A DNA stretch of 33,238 nt from an archaeon. Lineage in GTDB: Archaea > Iainarchaeota > Iainarchaeia > Iainarchaeales > Iainarchaeaceae. Where the stretch lies: contig SBBR01000060.1 of the NCBI GenBank assembly GCA_005239615.1, positions 1 to 33,238 of the forward strand. The letters run 5' to 3'. Numbering within the stretch: position 1 is the first letter of the stretch; each line of letters opens with the position of its first letter. A model generated the notes under the pieces. It was not told the DNA's origin. It did not search any database and was given only the letters and a program-made list of their open reading frames with translations. Position numbers and translations under genes: made by a program. Positions 18,980 to 33,238 of this stretch are shown here, piece after piece.

Positions 18980-19573
18980 TTGAAATCGCACGGGGGTGGC
19001 CGGTTGCAGTATACTATCGTTAACATTGTCGCCTCGGCCAATCTGAACGCGAACATTGACCTTTACAACCTCGCTGTGAGCATTCCTGATGTCGAGTACG
19101 AACCTGAGCAATTTCCCGGCGCAATCCTGAAGCTCAAGGAGCCGAAGGTGTCGATGCTCCTTTTCAAGAACGGCAAGATAATCTGCTCGGGAGCCAGCTC
19201 CGAGGCGCAGATACCGCTTGCAATCTATAAGGCCTCGAAGATGATTCACGAGATACAGAAGGGCGTTAAGGTGCAGAAGAACGCCGAGTATCAGGTGGTC
19301 AACCTTGTCACGACAGCTAACCTTCACATGAACCTTGACCTATTCAAGACCGCAATGGAATCTGACAACGTCGAGTACGAGCCTGAGCAATTTCCCGGCG
19401 CAATCCTCAGGATTCACGAGCCAAAGCTCACCCTGCTCCTATTTAAGAACGGCAAGCTGATTTGTGCCGGCGCGAAGAATGAGGAGCTCCTCAAGAAGGG
19501 CCTGCGCAAGGCGAGCGCTATGGTGCGCGCGATAAACGCGCCAAAACCTGCCGGAAAGAAAAAGGCGAAGTGA
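18980..19573 (+). CDS. tbp: TATA-box binding protein
   Basis: Two TBP repeats: NIVASANL..EYEPEQFPGAILKLKEPKVSMLLFKNGKIICSG and NLVTTANL..EYEPEQFPGAILRIHEPKLTLLLFKNGKLICAG. There is no in-frame ATG near the 5' end. Candidate starts are TTG at 18980 or TTG at 19004 (MQYTIVNIV). Basic C-terminal tail KPAGKKKAK. Confidence 0.93.
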   Translation: MKSHGGGRLQYTIVNIVASANLNANIDLYNLAVSIPDVEYEPEQFPGAILKLKEPKVSMLLFKNGKIICSGASSEAQIPLAIYKASKMIHEIQKGVKVQKNAEYQVVNLVTTANLHMNLDLFKTAMESDNVEYEPEQFPGAILRIHEPKLTLLLFKNGKLICAGAKNEELLKKGLRKASAMVRAINAPKPAGKKKAK

Positions 19574-20108: not shown

Positions 20109-20226
20109 GATTAGCGGCCATAGCGGCGGGGAAACACCCGGTCTCATCCCGAACCCGGAAGTTAAGCCCGCTGGCGATGTTGCGTGCACTGGTCTGTAGA
20201 CCGGAGCGCCTTATAAGCTGCTAATC
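20109..20226 (+). rRNA. rrf: 5S ribosomal RNA, not linked to 16S/23S in this window
   Basis: AGCGGCCATAGCGGCGGGGAAACACCCGGTCTCATCCCGAACCCGGAAGTTAAGCCCGCTGGCG matches the archaeal 5S core as I remember it. The 5' GATTAGC pairs with the 3' GCTAATC (helix I). About 118 nt. Confidence 0.9.
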
Positions 20227-25867: not shown

Positions 25868-26800
25868 ATGGCGATAAAAAAAATCCTCGTCACGGGCAGC
25901 AGCGGCACAATAGGAACTAGGCTGTGCGAGAAGCTCCTTGAAAGCGGCAATTACGAGGTCACTGGAGTCGACATAAAACCCAACAAGTGGAAGCCGGGAA
26001 TTAATTCCATCACGAAGCTCTGCGACCTGCGCGACATGAAGGCAGTTGACAGGCTCCAAAAAGGCTTTGACATCGTGGTGCATCTCGCGGCCAATGCGCG
26101 TGTGTACAACATCGTGATCGACCCAGTGCAGGCGAAGGACAACTTCGACACGACGTTCAACGCCCTTGAATACTGCCGCAAAGGCGGCGCGAAAAGGTTC
26201 ATTTTCGCCTCTAGTAGGGAAGTATACGGCAACACCCCAAAAAGTCGGGAAAGCATAATAAAGGAGAGCGACGCGCGCGTAGAGAGCTCGGAAAGCCCCT
26301 ACAGCGCATCCAAGATTTCGGGCGAGGCGCTTGCGCACTCGTACAGGAACTGCTACGGAGTGGATTTCATCATAACGAGGTTCTCAAACGTTTACGGCAT
26401 GTATGATGACAGTGACAGGTTCATTCCTTCAGTGACGAGACTCTGCATGGATGACGGGCAGATAACAATTTTCGGGAAGGATAAGGTCCTTGACTTCACC
26501 TACATTGACGACGCCGTGTGGGGGATCATGCTCTGTATAGAGAAGTTTGATTCCGTGAAAAACCTGACATTCAACATCGCCACTGGGAAGGGCACCGCGC
26601 TCATGAAGGTTGGGGAAATGATAAAGATGGAAACGGGCTCCGCAAGCAAAATCAAAATAGGGGAGAACCGGGTTGGCGAAGTCGTGAGGTTTGTTGCGGA
26701 CATCTCCAAGGCAAGGAAGCTGCTCGGATACTCTCCCAGGTACAGCTTTGAGGAAGGGCTGAAGAAAACAATAGCCTGGTACTCGAAACGCTCCGAATGA
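25868..26800 (+). CDS. NAD-dependent nucleotide-sugar epimerase/dehydratase (extended SDR)
   Basis: ILVTGSSGTIGTRL (GxxGxxG), SSREVYG, YSASK (YxxxK). Confidence 0.85.
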   Translation: MAIKKILVTGSSGTIGTRLCEKLLESGNYEVTGVDIKPNKWKPGINSITKLCDLRDMKAVDRLQKGFDIVVHLAANARVYNIVIDPVQAKDNFDTTFNALEYCRKGGAKRFIFASSREVYGNTPKSRESIIKESDARVESSESPYSASKISGEALAHSYRNCYGVDFIITRFSNVYGMYDDSDRFIPSVTRLCMDDGQITIFGKDKVLDFTYIDDAVWGIMLCIEKFDSVKNLTFNIATGKGTALMKVGEMIKMETGSASKIKIGENRVGEVVRFVADISKARKLLGYSPRYSFEEGLKKTIAWYSKRSE

Positions 26801-26891
26801 GTCCCGGAAACATGCGAGGCTGAATGGACCTGAAGGCATTTGTTTGGCCCCGTGGAAGTTTATCGTGGCAGGGAAATGCGGTTTCGTTGAT

Positions 26892-27000
26892 GGATAAGGC
26901 GTCTCTAAGCACCACGGGCTGAAGCCCGGCGAAGCATTTTCCGTCATCAGTCGCCGAAGGGAAAGGTTGGCTGGGTCTCACAAACAGCCGTCGACGGCAA
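26892..27000 (+). repeat. Copy A of a roughly 100-nt structured intergenic repeat
   Basis: gggctgaagcccggcgaagcattttccgtca (26916-26946) matches 33151-33181 at 30/31 positions. ggttggctgggtctcacaaac (26965-26985) matches 33205-33225 at 19/21. Hairpins: GGGC-UGAA-GCCC and GGCUG..CAGCC. Confidence 0.7.
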
Positions 27001-27066
27001 TGGTTTAGACAGCTGAATATTTCCGCAATTTTCAATTTGGCAAAACCGTTGAACGCAGGAGACACT

Positions 27067-27213
27067 CTAACAACCCCTGAAGCGAGTGGCGTCCTGCGTT
27101 GGGTCGATGATGGTGCTGCCAACGCAGACGACGGATTCGCCCTTTACCAACAGGAAATCGCATAGGTTGGAAACTATGAAACCGGCACCACCGGCGACCA
27201 TGATATTCTCCAT
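27067..27213 (-). pseudogene. 48-codon stub of an NAD-dependent epimerase/dehydratase (N-terminal Rossmann fragment only)
   Basis: My translation: MENIMVAGGAGFIVSNLCDFLLVKGESVVCV, after which SDR similarity is lost and the frame stops at 27067. Too short to appear in the ORF track. Confidence 0.45.
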
Positions 27214-27221
27214 GCCGAGCA

Positions 27222-27245
27222 AATGAATTATAAAATGAATTATAA
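27222..27245. repeat. Perfect tandem duplication of a 12-mer (aatgaattataa x2) in a divergent promoter region
   Basis: Read directly: aatgaattataa aatgaattataa. Each unit contains a TATA-like ATTATAAA. Confidence 0.8.
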
Positions 27246-27309
27246 TACAAATTGCATTTCATTGTGTTGACTTCTGATAGCGCTGTGAAGCCAGGCAAGT
27301 GGTTCTTCG

Positions 27310-27853
27310 ATGGGAAAAGATTCCGGCCTGATAACAGGTTACCTCGCAAAGGAAAGGAATTCCATTGCCGCAAGGTACGTTTCGGGAAAGAGGCTGCTTG
27401 ATATAGGCTGTGAATCCGGGCTACTGAGGAAATTGCTGGGAAAGGGCATGGAATACAACGGGATTGACATCTATGACAAAAAAGCTGGCATGGGCTTCAG
27501 GTACGCGTAGGGCGACATAGAAAAGGGCGTGAAGGGCTTCGGCAGGTCGACTGCCTAACAATGATGCAGTCATTGAGCACCTCAAGAGCCCTCATAAGGC
27601 TCTTGGGAACGCCTTTTCCTCCCTGCGCAAAAACGGCAGGCTCATCCTAACGACTCCAACAATAGCGGGTGATGCCGTGCACAAAATCTTCAGGAGGATA
27701 GGCCTTGTCTCGAGCTTCGCCGCGGAGGACCACAAGCACATATTCTCGCTGGAAGAGCTCAAGTCGGCATGCCAGCAAGCGGGATTCAGGATCATTGAAG
27801 CGAGGACGTTCAAGCTTGGCTTTAACCAGTTTGTAGTTTGCGAAAAACCCTGA
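27310..27853 (+). pseudogene. Class I SAM-dependent methyltransferase disrupted by an in-frame TAG and a +1 frameshift
   Basis: Frame 1: ...RLLDIGCESGLLRKLL (motif I)...GFRYA, TAG (27508-27510), GDIEKGVKGFGRSTA, stop. Frame 2 from about 27542: NDAVIEHLKSPHKALGNAFSSLRKNGRLILTTP...FSLEELKSACQQAGFRIIE, to the TGA at 27851-27853. Confidence 0.65.
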
Positions 27854-28453
27854 GGCCGCCAGACAACAATTACAAAGTTACAAGGAACCGTTATTGTTGG
27901 CTGGGAAATTGCGCTTGTACCGCCCAATTCTCCTAGTTTCGTCCCCACACCAAAATGCAAAAGGGTAAAGTAATGGTCTTCGGCACGCCCTTCACGCAGC
28001 CATACCGTTTACCCATGCCACTGCTTTTTTCTTCTCGATGTAGAGAATCTCCTCCTCTATTTTCTTGTTCCTCTTTATACATGACTTAGCCAGTTTAGGG
28101 AGGACTGATTAAGATTGTGTGTCGCAATTTTTCATTGATGCAAAGCCGCCAAATGCTTCGGGCGACCATTAAAACGGTCGGTAATCCTTGATAAACCCGG
28201 CCAAATTTTCCAGAACGACAGAGCCAAACTGCCGGCAATTTATTGTTTTACGTGGCCTCATTGGTAGGATAACGACCGACCGGATAAATGGGCTACACGG
28301 CAATGGCACTCTTAGCGCGGAATCTGCCTGAACCAAAAACATTTAATTAAGTCAGGGGCGGAATTATAGCAGTCCGGGAAAACGCTTTGGTGGAATTCCG
28401 GACGGCTATCTGCAACCCGGCCAATTATCGGCGGCATATTTTTTGGTGGTTGA

Positions 28454-29428
28454 GTGGAAAGGGTTCTCGTCACTGGAGGCTGCGGATTCATAGGAAGCGC
28501 TTTCGTGAGGATGCTGCTGAAGGAAACTGATGCTGAGGTGGTGAACCTCGACCTGCTCACCTATGCTGGAAACCCGAACAATCTAAGAGGCGTCGCGGAA
28601 GACAAAAGCCTCGGCAAGAGGTATACATTCATAAAAGGGGACATTGCGGACAGGAAAACCACCGCAAAGGCCCTTGAAGGGATTGACACAGTGTTCAGCT
28701 TCGCGGCCGAGAGCCATGTGGACAATTCCATAAAAGACTCTTCAGCTTTCGTGCGCACAAATGTGGCTGGGACCAAGAACATGGGTGAATGCGCAATGAA
28801 AGCTGGGGTCGAGCGCTTTGTGCAAGTCTCGACCGACGAAGTCTATGGCTCGGTCGAGAAAGGCTCATCGAAGGAAACCGATAGGCTAGAACCCCGCAAT
28901 CCGTACTCCGCAACGAAGGCGGCGTCAGACCTCATAGCGCTGAGCTACTTCACGACGTTCGGCTTCGATGTTTTGGTCACGCGCAGCTCGAACAATTATG
29001 GCCCTTATCAGTACCCTGAAAAGGTCATCCCGCTCTTCATCACGAACCTTCTTGAAGAAAAAAAAGTGCCGCTTTATGGCGACGGCAAAAACGTGAGGGA
29101 CTGGCTACACGTGGAGGACAACTGCCGCGCACTCCTAACTGTCTACCGGAAGGGGAAGAAGGGCGAAATCTACAACATCGGCGGCGGGAACGAAGTGCAG
29201 AATATTGAGTTGACGAAAAAAATCCTCAGGCTGACAGGGAGGGACGAGAGCTATATAGAGCTTGTGGAGGACAGAAAAGGGCATGACAGGCGCTACTCGC
29301 TCGACAGCTCAAAAACGAGGGCGCTCGGGTGGGAGCCGATGAAAAGATTTGACGAGGGCCTCGCCGAAACAGTGAAATGGTATAAGGAAAATGAATGGTG
29401 GTGGAAGCCACTGAAGGGGAAAGTATAA
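28454..29428 (+). CDS. rfbB: dTDP-glucose 4,6-dehydratase
   Basis: VLVTGGCGFIGSAFV, FAAESHVDNS, STDEVYG, YSATKAASD. GTG start preceded by GGTGG. Confidence 0.9.
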   Translation: MERVLVTGGCGFIGSAFVRMLLKETDAEVVNLDLLTYAGNPNNLRGVAEDKSLGKRYTFIKGDIADRKTTAKALEGIDTVFSFAAESHVDNSIKDSSAFVRTNVAGTKNMGECAMKAGVERFVQVSTDEVYGSVEKGSSKETDRLEPRNPYSATKAASDLIALSYFTTFGFDVLVTRSSNNYGPYQYPEKVIPLFITNLLEEKKVPLYGDGKNVRDWLHVEDNCRALLTVYRKGKKGEIYNIGGGNEVQNIELTKKILRLTGRDESYIELVEDRKGHDRRYSLDSSKTRALGWEPMKRFDEGLAETVKWYKENEWWWKPLKGKV

Positions 29429-30421: not shown

Positions 30422-31156
30422 GTGTGTGGCTTGGATAAGAAGGAACTCCTCAACATCAGCGCGCTGGAGGAAAAAAACTTCTGGCATGTCTCGAGGCGCG
30501 ACCTGCTGGACAGGATGCTCCCGAACGGCTCCGGTGATGTCTTCGAGATAGGCGTTGGGTGCGGCAAAAATCTTGAGTTCCTGCGCTCGAAAGGCTACAG
30601 CGTAGAGGGCATTGATATGGACCCTACCGCTGTCAAGTTCTCCCGCAAAAAGGGTCTGGACGTCACGAGGAAAAAAATCGAGGAGTACGATTTCAGGAAA
30701 AAGTACGACCTCGTGCTCATGATGGATGTGCTTGAGCACATCGAGGATGACGCTGCGTGCGTGAAGAGGCTCGCGCGAGGCATAAAGAATGGGGGCCACC
30801 TTTATCTCACCGTGCCTGCGTATAGGTTCATGTACGGCCCACATGACCTTCTGTGTCACCACCACAGGAGGTATGAAATCGACGACGTGAGAAGGCTTGT
30901 CAGTGGCGCAGGGCTGTCCATCAAGAGGCTCAGCTACTGGAACGGTACCTATTTCCTGCCTGTGGCGGTGTTCAAGTACTTCCGCAGGGTTCTGTTCGAC
31001 GGCGATCTAACCAAGACCAACCCCGACCTCGGGATAGCTCCGGAGCCATTCAACACTGCAATTATCCAGAGCCTGAGGCTAGAGAACCGTGCCATAAGCG
31101 AGGGAATTGTCATACCATTCGGCTCTAGCGTGGTGTGCCTAGCGCAGAAGCCCTGA
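30422..31156 (+). CDS. Class I SAM-dependent methyltransferase
   Basis: FWHVSRRDLL, VFEIGVGCGKNLEFL (motif I), DLVLMMDVLEHIEDD, GGHLYLTVP. GTG start. Confidence 0.85.
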   Translation: MCGLDKKELLNISALEEKNFWHVSRRDLLDRMLPNGSGDVFEIGVGCGKNLEFLRSKGYSVEGIDMDPTAVKFSRKKGLDVTRKKIEEYDFRKKYDLVLMMDVLEHIEDDAACVKRLARGIKNGGHLYLTVPAYRFMYGPHDLLCHHHRRYEIDDVRRLVSGAGLSIKRLSYWNGTYFLPVAVFKYFRRVLFDGDLTKTNPDLGIAPEPFNTAIIQSLRLENRAISEGIVIPFGSSVVCLAQKP

Positions 31157-31271
31157 ACACCACGGGCAATCTTGTTCTCTCAGGACGAGACCTCGTCCCA
31201 AAGGGACAAGGGCCATGAATGGCAAGAGGTCCTTTTTGGTTGCTGAGGCAGCCTTCCAAGCCATTTTCCAT

Positions 31272-31403: not shown

Positions 31404-32897
31404 ATGAAAATCCTGATGCTAAATCCGCCTTTCCTTTTCAGATTTTCAAGGACAAGCAGGTCTCCCGCCATCTCGAAGGGCGGGTGCGTTTACTACCCAA
31501 TCTGGATGGGCTATGCAACCGGCGTGCTCGAGAAAGCAGGCCATGACGTAAAGCTGCTTGACTGCCCAGCTTCTGGCATGAAGCTCGAAGAAGTTGTGGA
31601 GCTAACGAGGGACTGGAAACCAGAGCTCATTGTGGTTGATTCTGTTACTGCTTCGTTCAACAACGACGTGAAGGTTGTTGAAACCCTGAAGGACGCCAGA
31701 CCTGAGGCGTTCATCATAATGGTAGGAACGCACGTTGGCGCGCTGCCGGAGATATCACTGAGGGCGAGCAGGAAGATTGATGCTGTTGCGCGTGGGGAGT
31801 ACGATTACATACTGAGGGACCTCGCGCACGCGCTCGAGTACAAGAAGTCGCTTGACACGGTGCTTGGTATCACTTACTGGGACGGCGAAGGGAAGTTAAA
31901 ATTCACGCCTAACATGCCGCCGATTGAACAGGAGGGCCTCGATGACATGCCCTTTGTAAGCGACGTGTACAAAAGGCATTTGAAAATCAGGGACTATTTT
32001 TACCCTTCGGTGCTCTTCCCTGAGGTCACAATCATAACAGGTCGCGGATGCAAGTACCGCTGCACATTCTGCAAGTGGCCGCAGACCCTGACCGGGCATT
32101 CTTACAGGGCGCGTAGCGTGAAGAACGTAGTCGACGAGTTCGAGTGGATTGCAAAGAACCTGCCTGAAGTAAAGGACATAATGATTGAAGACGACACCCT
32201 AACACAGGACAAGGCGCGCACAATAGAGCTTTGCAGGGAAGTGCAGAGCCGTGGCCTTGATATTACATGGACATGCAATTCGCGCGCCGACCTTGATTTG
32301 GAGACAATGCAGTGGATGAAGAAAGGCGGCTGCAGGCTCATGTGTGTTGGCTTTGAGAGCGCGGACCAGCTGATACTCAACAACATCAAGAAGGGCACGC
32401 GTATAGAGAAGATAGAGCAGTTCATGGTTGATTCCAAGAAAGCGAACCTCCTAGTGCACGGGTGCTTCATGATGGGGAACAACGGTGAGACAAAGGAAAC
32501 TATAAAGAAGACTGTTGAATGGGCGAAGAAGCTCGAGCCAGACACGGCGCAATTCTTCCCGATAATGGTATACCCCGGCACGGAGGCATTCAGGTGGGCG
32601 CAGGAAGGCGGCTACCTCACAACGCAGAAGTGGGGCGAATGGCTCACTGTAGAGGGAACGCACAACACCATTGTGAGCACGGAGCACCTTAAGGCAGATG
32701 AGCTTGTGGCTTCTTGCGACTGGGCACGCAAGGAATTTTATTGGAGGCCCTCATATATTGTAAGCAGGCTGAAGCTCATGCTGAGCCAGCCACGCGAAGC
32801 TCCGAGGCTCATGATGGGCGCGAAGACATTCATGAAGTACCTCCTCGACATTGACTTTTGGAAGAAGTCGGCGGCGGAAAAACAAGTAAGTGCATGA
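31404..32897 (+). CDS. B12-binding-domain radical SAM enzyme (class B; HpnJ-like architecture)
   Basis: 497 aa. N-terminal Rossmann-like cobalamin-binding-type region (MKILMLNPP..., ELIVVDSVTASF, IIMVGTHVGALPE). Radical SAM cluster motif GRGCKYRCTFCKWPQT. Also ILNNIKKG and GETKETI. Confidence 0.85.
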   Translation: MKILMLNPPFLFRFSRTSRSPAISKGGCVYYPIWMGYATGVLEKAGHDVKLLDCPASGMKLEEVVELTRDWKPELIVVDSVTASFNNDVKVVETLKDARPEAFIIMVGTHVGALPEISLRASRKIDAVARGEYDYILRDLAHALEYKKSLDTVLGITYWDGEGKLKFTPNMPPIEQEGLDDMPFVSDVYKRHLKIRDYFYPSVLFPEVTIITGRGCKYRCTFCKWPQTLTGHSYRARSVKNVVDEFEWIAKNLPEVKDIMIEDDTLTQDKARTIELCREVQSRGLDITWTCNSRADLDLETMQWMKKGGCRLMCVGFESADQLILNNIKKGTRIEKIEQFMVDSKKANLLVHGCFMMGNNGETKETIKKTVEWAKKLEPDTAQFFPIMVYPGTEAFRWAQEGGYLTTQKWGEWLTVEGTHNTIVSTEHLKADELVASCDWARKEFYWRPSYIVSRLKLMLSQPREAPRLMMGAKTFMKYLLDIDFWKKSAAEKQVSA

Positions 32898-33133
32898 TGC
32901 CTCTACAGTTCTATTGATGGGCAGGTCTACCTTCCCCAAGCAAGGGTTTGATATGTGAAAAATATGCCACTTTTTCTTTCGCTAAATCGTTGGAGGTTTC
33001 TCGGGCTGAAAGAAAAGCGCCGTTGATAAGTAGGTAAGTGTTTAGATCCTATCTTATAGCCTGTGGCAATGGAAAAGGTGAAACTAGATTGTATATAGAG
33101 AATTTTGCGTTGGCAGAAGTTCCTTCGACGCGA

Positions 33134-33238
33134 CGGATTCTGAGCGCCGCGGGCTGAAGCCCAGCGAAGCATTTTCCGTCAACGGAAATTCCCGCAGGGA
33201 TTTGGGTTGGCGGGGTCTCATAAACTACCGCCAACGGA
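33134..33238 (+). repeat. Copy B of the structured intergenic repeat, truncated by the window edge
   Basis: See copy A. It has the same orientation. The stem is UUGGCGG (33207-33213) with CCGCCAA (33228-33234), plus extra hairpins UUCCG-UCAA-CGGAA and AAUUCCC-GCA-GGGAUUU. Confidence 0.7.

Follow-up and report, generated by a model that had tools for sequence, protein, structure and literature searches.

A small, lineage-restricted family of non-coding repeats of about 100 nt in the N-glycosylation cluster of an Iainarchaeota archaeon

The window and its glycosylation cluster

The window, by which we mean the whole stretch of 33,238 nt that was analysed, carries genes for Trp and Arg biosynthesis, a TBP gene, an L21e gene and a lone 5S rRNA gene; it is chromosomal DNA from an archaeon. 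The 5S rRNA gene (20110-20226, + strand, 80.7 bits) was the only feature returned when the whole window was scanned against Rfam with cmscan; no 16S or 23S gene accompanies it, its neighbours being the TBP gene on one side and the glycosylation cluster on the other. Within the TBP gene (18980-19573) a 104-nt direct repeat was found (19091-19194 and 19370-19473, 79% identity), which corresponds to the two Pfam TBP domain repeats. The N-glycosylation cluster begins with AglB/STT3, followed by Alg14/Alg13-like genes, a GT2 gene and an epimerase gene (25868-26800), behind which lies the first copy of the repeat described here (copy A). The order then continues with a methyltransferase pseudogene, a dehydratase gene, a nucleotidyltransferase gene, a gene for a 244-aa methyltransferase and a B12/radical-SAM gene (31404-32897), and ends with copy B. 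The cluster is rich in paralogous genes. The nearest named homologues of the radical-SAM protein are found in 'Candidatus Diapherotrites/Iainarchaeum' MAGs, which places the host in this DPANN lineage; an exact look-up of this protein returned a 2.2-kb Logan contig (L001) identical to the window, and the same look-up with the window's epimerase protein returned no match.

The methyltransferase pseudogene (27310-27850) consists of a 66-aa ORF with a SAM-binding motif that runs into a stop, the remainder being in another frame, and it is followed by about 550 nt free of ORFs (27850-28380). With the Methyltransf_23 gene of relatives it shares about 33% identity. The same low figure (about 33%) was obtained against the methyltransferase situated behind the radical-SAM gene in relatives, and a recent gene-sized duplication that included the element and the methyltransferase was for this reason rejected as the origin of copies A and B. 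A hairpin with a 9-bp stem (CTGCGTTGG...CCAACGCAG) lies at 27094-27127, 95 nt after copy A, and its 5' arm TGCGTTGG and the CGACGGATTC that follows recur upstream of copy B (33103-33140), the single matches being not significant. A two-hairpin module unrelated to the repeat, here called element X (32886-32965), starts at the stop codon of the radical-SAM gene (CATGATGCCTCTG...). In the related loci L010 (9712-9882) and L011 (6598-6770) it occurs as a tandem pair, and in the window as a single degenerate unit; in RNAalifold 8 of its 18 pairs are kept through two-sided changes. As a conserved 3'-UTR RNA, element X makes a stronger candidate than the A/B repeat.

Copies A and B

It was originally predicted that a structured element of about 100 nt occurs twice in direct orientation at this locus. 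Both of its proposed building blocks were recovered: a 31-nt core lies at 26916-26946 and 33151-33181, with one difference and a spacing of 6235 nt (0 such pairs expected in shuffles), and a 21-nt block lies at 26965-26985 and 33205-33225, with two differences. A gapped alignment joins them over 26904-26998 and 33139-33237, with 77 of 99 columns identical (78%, E 1e-17) and indels of 3 and 2 nt placed between the conserved blocks. The similarity extends, in weaker form, a further 25-45 nt or so upstream, where a weakly conserved leader of copy A (26880-26903, + strand) has its counterpart at 33115-33138 upstream of copy B.

Copy A (26904-26998, + strand) opens with a 5' block (26904-26920) that overlaps a first hairpin, CGGGC-TGAA-GCCCG (hairpin 1, 26915-26928), and closes with a 3' block, GGTTGGCTGGGTCTC (26965-26979), and a tail that holds the mini-hairpin CCG-TCGA-CGG (26988-26997); its long-range helix is in part broken up. 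In copy B (33139-33238, + strand), which is truncated at the window end, hairpin 1 lies at 33150-33163 and is followed by the palindrome TTTCCG-TCAA-CGGAAA (33173-33188), a second palindrome TCCC-GCA-GGGA (33190-33200), the 3' block (33205-33219) and the tail mini-hairpin CCG-CCAA-CGG (33228-33237). As had been pointed out, a gene on the same strand lies upstream of each copy, the epimerase gene before A and the radical-SAM gene before B.

Further members of the family

Syntenic loci of relatives were fetched by way of the radical-SAM protein and by way of a glycosyltransferase-like neighbour. A search of these related genomes for more copies yielded an intact copy in one Logan contig, L005, and degenerate copies in both L005 and the window. 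The radical-SAM protein of L005 is 91% identical to that of the window, and the coding DNA of the two is 67-81% identical. The intact copy, L005c (L005 15880-15982), is intergenic between divergent genes, at a site that differs from those of A and B. Its 5' block (TTTGAGCACCGTGGGCT) and its 3' block and tail (GCGGGGTCTC..AACCGTCAACGG) match A and B, and its interior is unrelated. It was recovered by a two-sequence nhmmer model (E 0.004), it was the only match to a 26-base end pattern among the fetched loci, and its local alignment was better than those of 300 out of 300 shuffles.

A partial copy, C (31154-31215, + strand), carries a 5' block whose start coincides with the stop codon of the gene for the 244-aa methyltransferase, and is without a 3' block. 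A first hairpin of the L005c type is present, along with an inverted duplicate of it; against L005c, copy C gave blastn matches with E 2e-4 and 0.04 and a local alignment better than 300 of 300 shuffles. Inside copy C, at 31170-31211, a near-perfect 19-nt inverted duplication was seen, CTTGTTCTCTCAGGACGAG-AC-CTCGTCCCAAAGGGACAAG, whose right arm, when reverse-complemented, matches the L005c hairpin exactly. Three more candidates have modest statistics. A possible copy D (28380-28453, + strand) is a degenerate 5' half immediately upstream of the GTG start of the dehydratase gene at 28454; it is weak, as 1 of 300 shuffles reaches its alignment to L005 copy d and 4 of 300 its alignment to B, and it was not recovered by an HMM built with D left out. 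Copy d of L005 (19366-19449) is an A-type 5' half that ends at the contig end (0 of 300 shuffles), and copy b of L005 (6785-6857) is degenerate, with E 0.014 for an HMM from which b was excluded.

The members share a common anatomy. The conserved 5' block reads T(C/T)TGAGC(A/G)CCG(C/T)GGGC, which contains a TGA, and the GC hairpin (hairpin 1) lies about 12 nt from the left edge of the repeat. The interior is variable and holds one or more palindromes. The conserved 3' block, GC(G/T)GGGTCTC, is able to pair with the 5' block, the two being complementary at about 12 of 14 positions, and is followed by a conserved 20-nt tail that finishes in a CCG-YCRA-CGG mini-hairpin. An internal sub-repeat between the 5' and 3' blocks was also considered and did not rise above shuffles. 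Between genomes whose genes are about 70% identical, the end blocks agree at about 85% of positions, and this at non-orthologous sites; set against a coding-DNA identity of only 67-81%, they have been preserved better than most genes. Copies A and B are thus members of a small, previously undescribed, lineage-restricted family of non-coding repeats of about 100 nt.

Outside the window and L005, no copy was found with the covariance model R1 or the nhmmer models in L006, L010-L012, L015, L016 and L019-L021 (about 125 kb of more distant relatives), and blastn against plasmids and phages gave nothing. Exact patterns of the A/B core returned only chance matches in genome, metagenome and viral contigs, the interior having later proved variable, and the end-based pattern had no match in viral contigs. 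A 16-nt match at the edge of L011 was set aside as chance (E 0.47-0.7). The original failure to match the repeat to known RNA patterns was borne out with Rfam: no family was recognized, be it 5S, tRNA, SRP, RNase P, C/D or H/ACA sRNA, a riboswitch, a ribozyme or EAR. ARAGORN reported no tRNA, and permissive Rfam scans (E <= 10) of A, B and L005c gave only chance matches to eukaryotic families with E >= 0.14. Readings as H/ACA, C/D box, BHB, K-turn or tRNA-half elements, and as group II domain V, 5S-like, ORB or attC elements, were rejected by eye and by pattern, the defining motifs being absent or not conserved. A scan for sigma-70 promoters and terminators was uninformative, the host being an archaeon.

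It was also asked whether the repeat might be what is left of a duplicated protein-coding gene. A, B and L005c are open throughout on the minus strand, where the 5' module also holds short ATG mini-ORFs. No reading frame is common to the copies, however, the 5' and 3' blocks stand in differing relative frames from copy to copy, the A/B indels are of 3 and 2 nt, and a six-frame translation query of the repeat found no protein at E <= 10 among 5.8 billion sequences. The earlier view that conservation is not at the protein level was therefore borne out, and the coding remnant, which we consider next to inconceivable, is for practical purposes refuted. As to the mini-ORFs themselves, the 5' module ends in a conserved GCAT, which gives an ATG on the minus strand (window 26929-26938 and 33164-33173; L005 19416-19425 and 6839-6848) and in three copies opens frames of 9-10 codons, with the products MLRRASARGA*, MPRASAGGS* and MPPALAGGS*. 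These minus-strand mini-ORFs are probably incidental to the palindrome.

Secondary structure

Three stems had been proposed for the repeat, one of them with a compensatory change that was taken as a sign of selection on structure. The first, the GGGC-UGAA-GCCC hairpin, is indeed seen in both A and B. The second, a UUUCC/GGAAA pairing, joins partners that are not homologous, that of B lying in a B-specific insertion where it forms a local hairpin (33173-33188) and that of A lying 20 nt off. In the third, GGCUG/CAGCC in A against GGCGG/CCGCC in B, the 3' arms are offset by three alignment columns, and the homologous columns are without a two-sided change. On these few sequences the argument from covariation thus fails, there being no helix with a two-sided change at aligned positions: none (0) was counted in the proposed stems and the closing helix among three sequences. 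A single flip from G-C to C-G was found in hairpin 1, in copy d of L005, among four sequences, and as 233 of 500 shuffles reach it, it is not significant.

Folding energies divide the copies. Copy A folds no better than shuffles (z -0.41 as RNA, 0.05 as DNA), copy B reaches z -1.77 as RNA, through an extended stem, and -2.3 as DNA, through four local palindromes, and L005c, with z -4.3 as RNA and -4.4 as DNA, is the only copy that is clearly better. In L005c the 5' and 3' blocks form a closing helix that, with two internal hairpins, makes a three-way junction, to which a 3' mini-hairpin is added, and a hairpin and a U-run follow downstream. In the three-copy alignment 91.7% of the cells of the closing helix are paired, against 28-51% when the partners are slid. 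The changes in this helix are all one-sided, from G-C to G-U, and G-U pairs function on the + strand only; in A, B and L005c the + strand also has the more favourable folding energy of the two strands, by 2-4 kcal/mol. The mismatches in the closing helix of copy A fit decay beside a pseudogene. From these folding models, a secondary structure of the repeat is plausible as a prediction.

Such observations bring up the possibility that the repeat is a cis-acting structured RNA module, or a small RNA gene, of the glycan transcription units, transcribed from the gene strand, whose closing helix and 3' tail hairpin would be bound or processed and so would affect mRNA stability, processing, or termination and read-through between cistrons. 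Intercistronic REP stem-loops and the bacterial EAR element would be loose analogues. The strand-specific helix and the junction of L005c speak for it, as does the fact that the copies all lie on the gene strand and no more than 310 nt upstream of a gene. TATA-like boxes can be read from the sequence 29-45 nt upstream of copies, the 5' end of L005c lying about 26 nt past a TTTATAAA box, and the covariation in element X, although that module is unrelated, indicates that structured intercistronic modules exist in these clusters. Against this, the helices are without two-sided covariation, A and B fold no better than shuffles, and the closing helix is conserved and the interior is not, which is the reverse of what is seen in riboswitch-like RNAs. 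Furthermore, decay is frequent among the copies, which do not occupy orthologous sites and are missing from relatives that have the same genes, and the TATA box before L005c may serve the divergent leaderless gene. We regard this explanation as rather unlikely, and yet its tight confinement to the glycan cluster, the orientation shared with the genes, the TATA-like boxes and the hairpin and U-run after L005c together make a transcript-level role of the repeat a serious rival.

Genomic setting of the copies

When the window and L005 were compared, every indel in the glycan cluster was found to hold a copy, and all copies lie in DNA that is missing from the other genome, at non-orthologous intergenic sites. 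L005 has 370 extra nt between the GT2 and epimerase genes, where copy b is located. The window in turn has a specific segment of 1.54 kb (26901-28441, + strand), absent from L005, which holds copy A, the pseudogene, the stretch of about 550 nt free of ORFs and, at its end, possible copy D. The intergenic L005 8111-8200 is homologous to window 26808-26902, the leader of copy A being the last stretch to show this homology. It breaks off at about 26901-26903, no more than about 3 nt from the left edge of copy A, and returns at the start of the dehydratase gene. The window also has 1.1 kb extra with the 244-aa methyltransferase gene and copy C, and after the radical-SAM gene it has more than 340 nt with copy B, compared with 84 nt in L005. 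In L021, a distant relative, a gene pair orthologous to the divergent pair around L005c has a 116-nt spacer without a copy.

All copies are inside the glycan cluster on the strand of the neighbouring downstream genes, 0-310 nt before a gene. Those of the window are confined to about 6 kb, with none in the first 26.8 kb, and copies in the same orientation are spaced 1.5-2.7 kb apart. The genes that flank different copies are unrelated to one another. Three independent contigs end within copies, namely the window (33238, in B), L001 (at the equivalent of window 33186) and L005 (19449, in copy d), which suggests that the repeat, or a strain-variable junction, breaks assemblies.

It had been suggested that the 6.2-kb interval between A and B might be an exchangeable cassette. 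That idea is contradicted by gene order, since relatives free of the repeat keep its dehydratase, nucleotidyltransferase and radical-SAM genes in synteny. Among the other options put forward at the time, a MITE-like element and a recombination junction fit best, because the copies lie in lineage-specific DNA at breaks of synteny.

The same setting could be explained without any activity of the repeat itself, if the copies were passive relics, that is, gene-flanking DNA duplicated or imported with methyltransferase or glycosyltransferase cassettes by ordinary recombination. Copies C and L005 d and b begin at or just past a stop codon, and the 5' block contains TGA; copy A adjoins a pseudogene and non-coding debris in a cluster full of paralogous genes, and element X shows that a gene end and its hairpins can duplicate in tandem. 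On the other hand, neutral relics should not align, and the end blocks are about 85% identical at non-orthologous sites, compared with about 70% for genes, with flanking genes that have no relation to one another. We therefore consider passive origin unlikely.

A proposed mobile or recombination-associated repeat

Well-kept ends, non-orthologous sites, a mixture of intact and decayed copies and the breaks in assemblies together indicate that the repeat moves or is moved with cassettes, and they argue against a conserved regulatory RNA at fixed loci. Our leading reading, held tentatively and at something short of an even chance, is that the family is a small non-autonomous mobile or recombination-associated repeat that is strand-specific and without terminal inverted repeats or target-site duplications; it looks more like such an element than like a conserved RNA gene. 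The repeat would spread within the flexible portion of the glycan cluster, or would travel there together with gene cassettes, and in that place it would mark gene gains and losses and would break metagenome assemblies. It is probably co-transcribed with the genes, and it may additionally act as an intercistronic stem-loop. It was shown in earlier work that transposon activity and homologous recombination occur in another Diapherotrites genome (PMC5905446).

The search for direct traces of transposition gave negative results. Around the boundaries of A and L005c, up to 20 nt away, only chance repeats of 4-5 nt were found and no target-site duplication; no inverted repeats are present at the extreme ends, where the conserved 20-nt tail follows the 3' block; and Pfam revealed no transposase or recombinase gene within the window. 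The low copy number and the confinement to about 6 kb also speak against mobility, as a local duplication, or a function specific to the cluster, would account for them better than free transposition would, and the uniform orientation, the TATA-like boxes and the G-U pairs that work only on the + strand would all fit an RNA role.

Of the original interpretation, it may be said that the non-coding and repeated nature of the element, its absence from Rfam and the expectation of more copies were upheld, whereas the covariation and the exchange of a cassette between A and B, the genes there being syntenic in relatives, were not. A bolder proposal, to which we give only a small chance, is that the repeat is a working part of an undescribed system of cassette gain and loss, namely a strand-specific, hairpin-bounded junction folded from single-stranded DNA and served in trans by a Y1 or other recombinase, or else the archaeal counterpart of the read-through elements of polysaccharide operons. 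If this were true, the surface-glycan genes of DPANN archaea would be shuffled by such a system. Few loci in microbial genomes vary as much as those that encode cell-surface glycans. The repeat, which marks each gene gain or loss between the two genomes compared, may be of use as a practical marker for the flexible part of DPANN glycan clusters, and it is a candidate handle on the mechanism of their reshuffling, be it as a mobile element, a recombination substrate or a transcript-level module.

Comparison with known systems

Integron attC sites, including those of CALINs, are the known systems closest to the idea of a cassette junction. Like them, the repeat is a hairpin-rich site of 60-140 nt that lies downstream of genes, in the same orientation, at distances below 4 kb (here 1.5-2.7 kb), with conserved ends and a variable interior, and the window-specific segment is bounded by A and possibly by D. 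Such a site, folded from single-stranded DNA and recognized by a site-specific recombinase for glycan cassettes, is very improbable. A regular-expression search and a scan for 6-of-7 complementarity, run on A, B, C and D in both strands, revealed no attC core sites, and RYYYAAC...GTTRRRY sites in the right order are absent at every copy; the only attC core match in the window is inside the radical-SAM coding region. Neither the window nor those related loci whose genes were listed contain a tyrosine recombinase, no recombinase domain or integrase being among their Pfam results, and the genes between copies are conserved, syntenic genes of the cluster core and not short promoterless cassettes. 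It is through core sites that attC is defined, and integrons and CALINs have been reported in archaea (PMC9668308).

Like classical MITEs, the repeat is small and non-coding, has conserved and mutually complementary ends around a variable interior, and sits at indel sites. Unlike them, it is without a target-site duplication, its inverted repeat is not terminal, and no parent element is known.

IS200/IS605-derived hairpin elements, which are PATE- or MITE-like and moved by Y1 transposases, share more features with it: no terminal inverted repeats, no target-site duplication, a size of about 100 nt, a hairpin near each end (hairpin 1 on the left; the CCG-YCRA-CGG tail on the right in A, B and L005c) and copies on one strand. 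The differences are that no cognate transposase with matching ends was found, that no conserved target tetranucleotide could be defined, that the two hairpins of the repeat are only loosely similar, and that its copy number is low and local. A gene for an IS200-type Y1 transposase was seen in L012 (62-436, - strand), with GC-rich flanking hairpins, directly upstream of the dehydratase gene, which is the variable spot occupied by copy A in the window. This Y1_Tnp (PF01797) was rejected as the cognate enzyme, its flanks being without significant similarity to any copy.

Bacterial REPs are 20-40 nt long, occur by the hundreds per genome, and are often found in alternating orientation and paired with RAYT genes. 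The repeat resembles REP and BIME elements in being made of short palindromic modules, in its intergenic or intercistronic and mosaic character and in its frequent decayed copies, and by analogy it may, as they are, be transcribed with operons. It differs from them in its length of about 100 nt with a long-range helix, in its uniform orientation, in its archaeal host and in the few copies known from 33 kb and 19 kb of the two host genomes.

A last comparison can be made with EAR RNA and JUMPstart/ops of bacterial polysaccharide operons, which are likewise non-coding, placed in or before long glycan clusters and oriented with transcription. The repeat has no sequence or Rfam match to them and is not at orthologous positions, and we know of no archaeal counterpart of EAR/JUMPstart-type elements. 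By analogy, the repeat would seem to resemble IS200/IS605-derived hairpin elements or REP-like units more than classical MITEs, and from what its sequence offers it is best filed among the small structured intergenic repeats, as a modest, lineage-restricted member of that group with a putative function.
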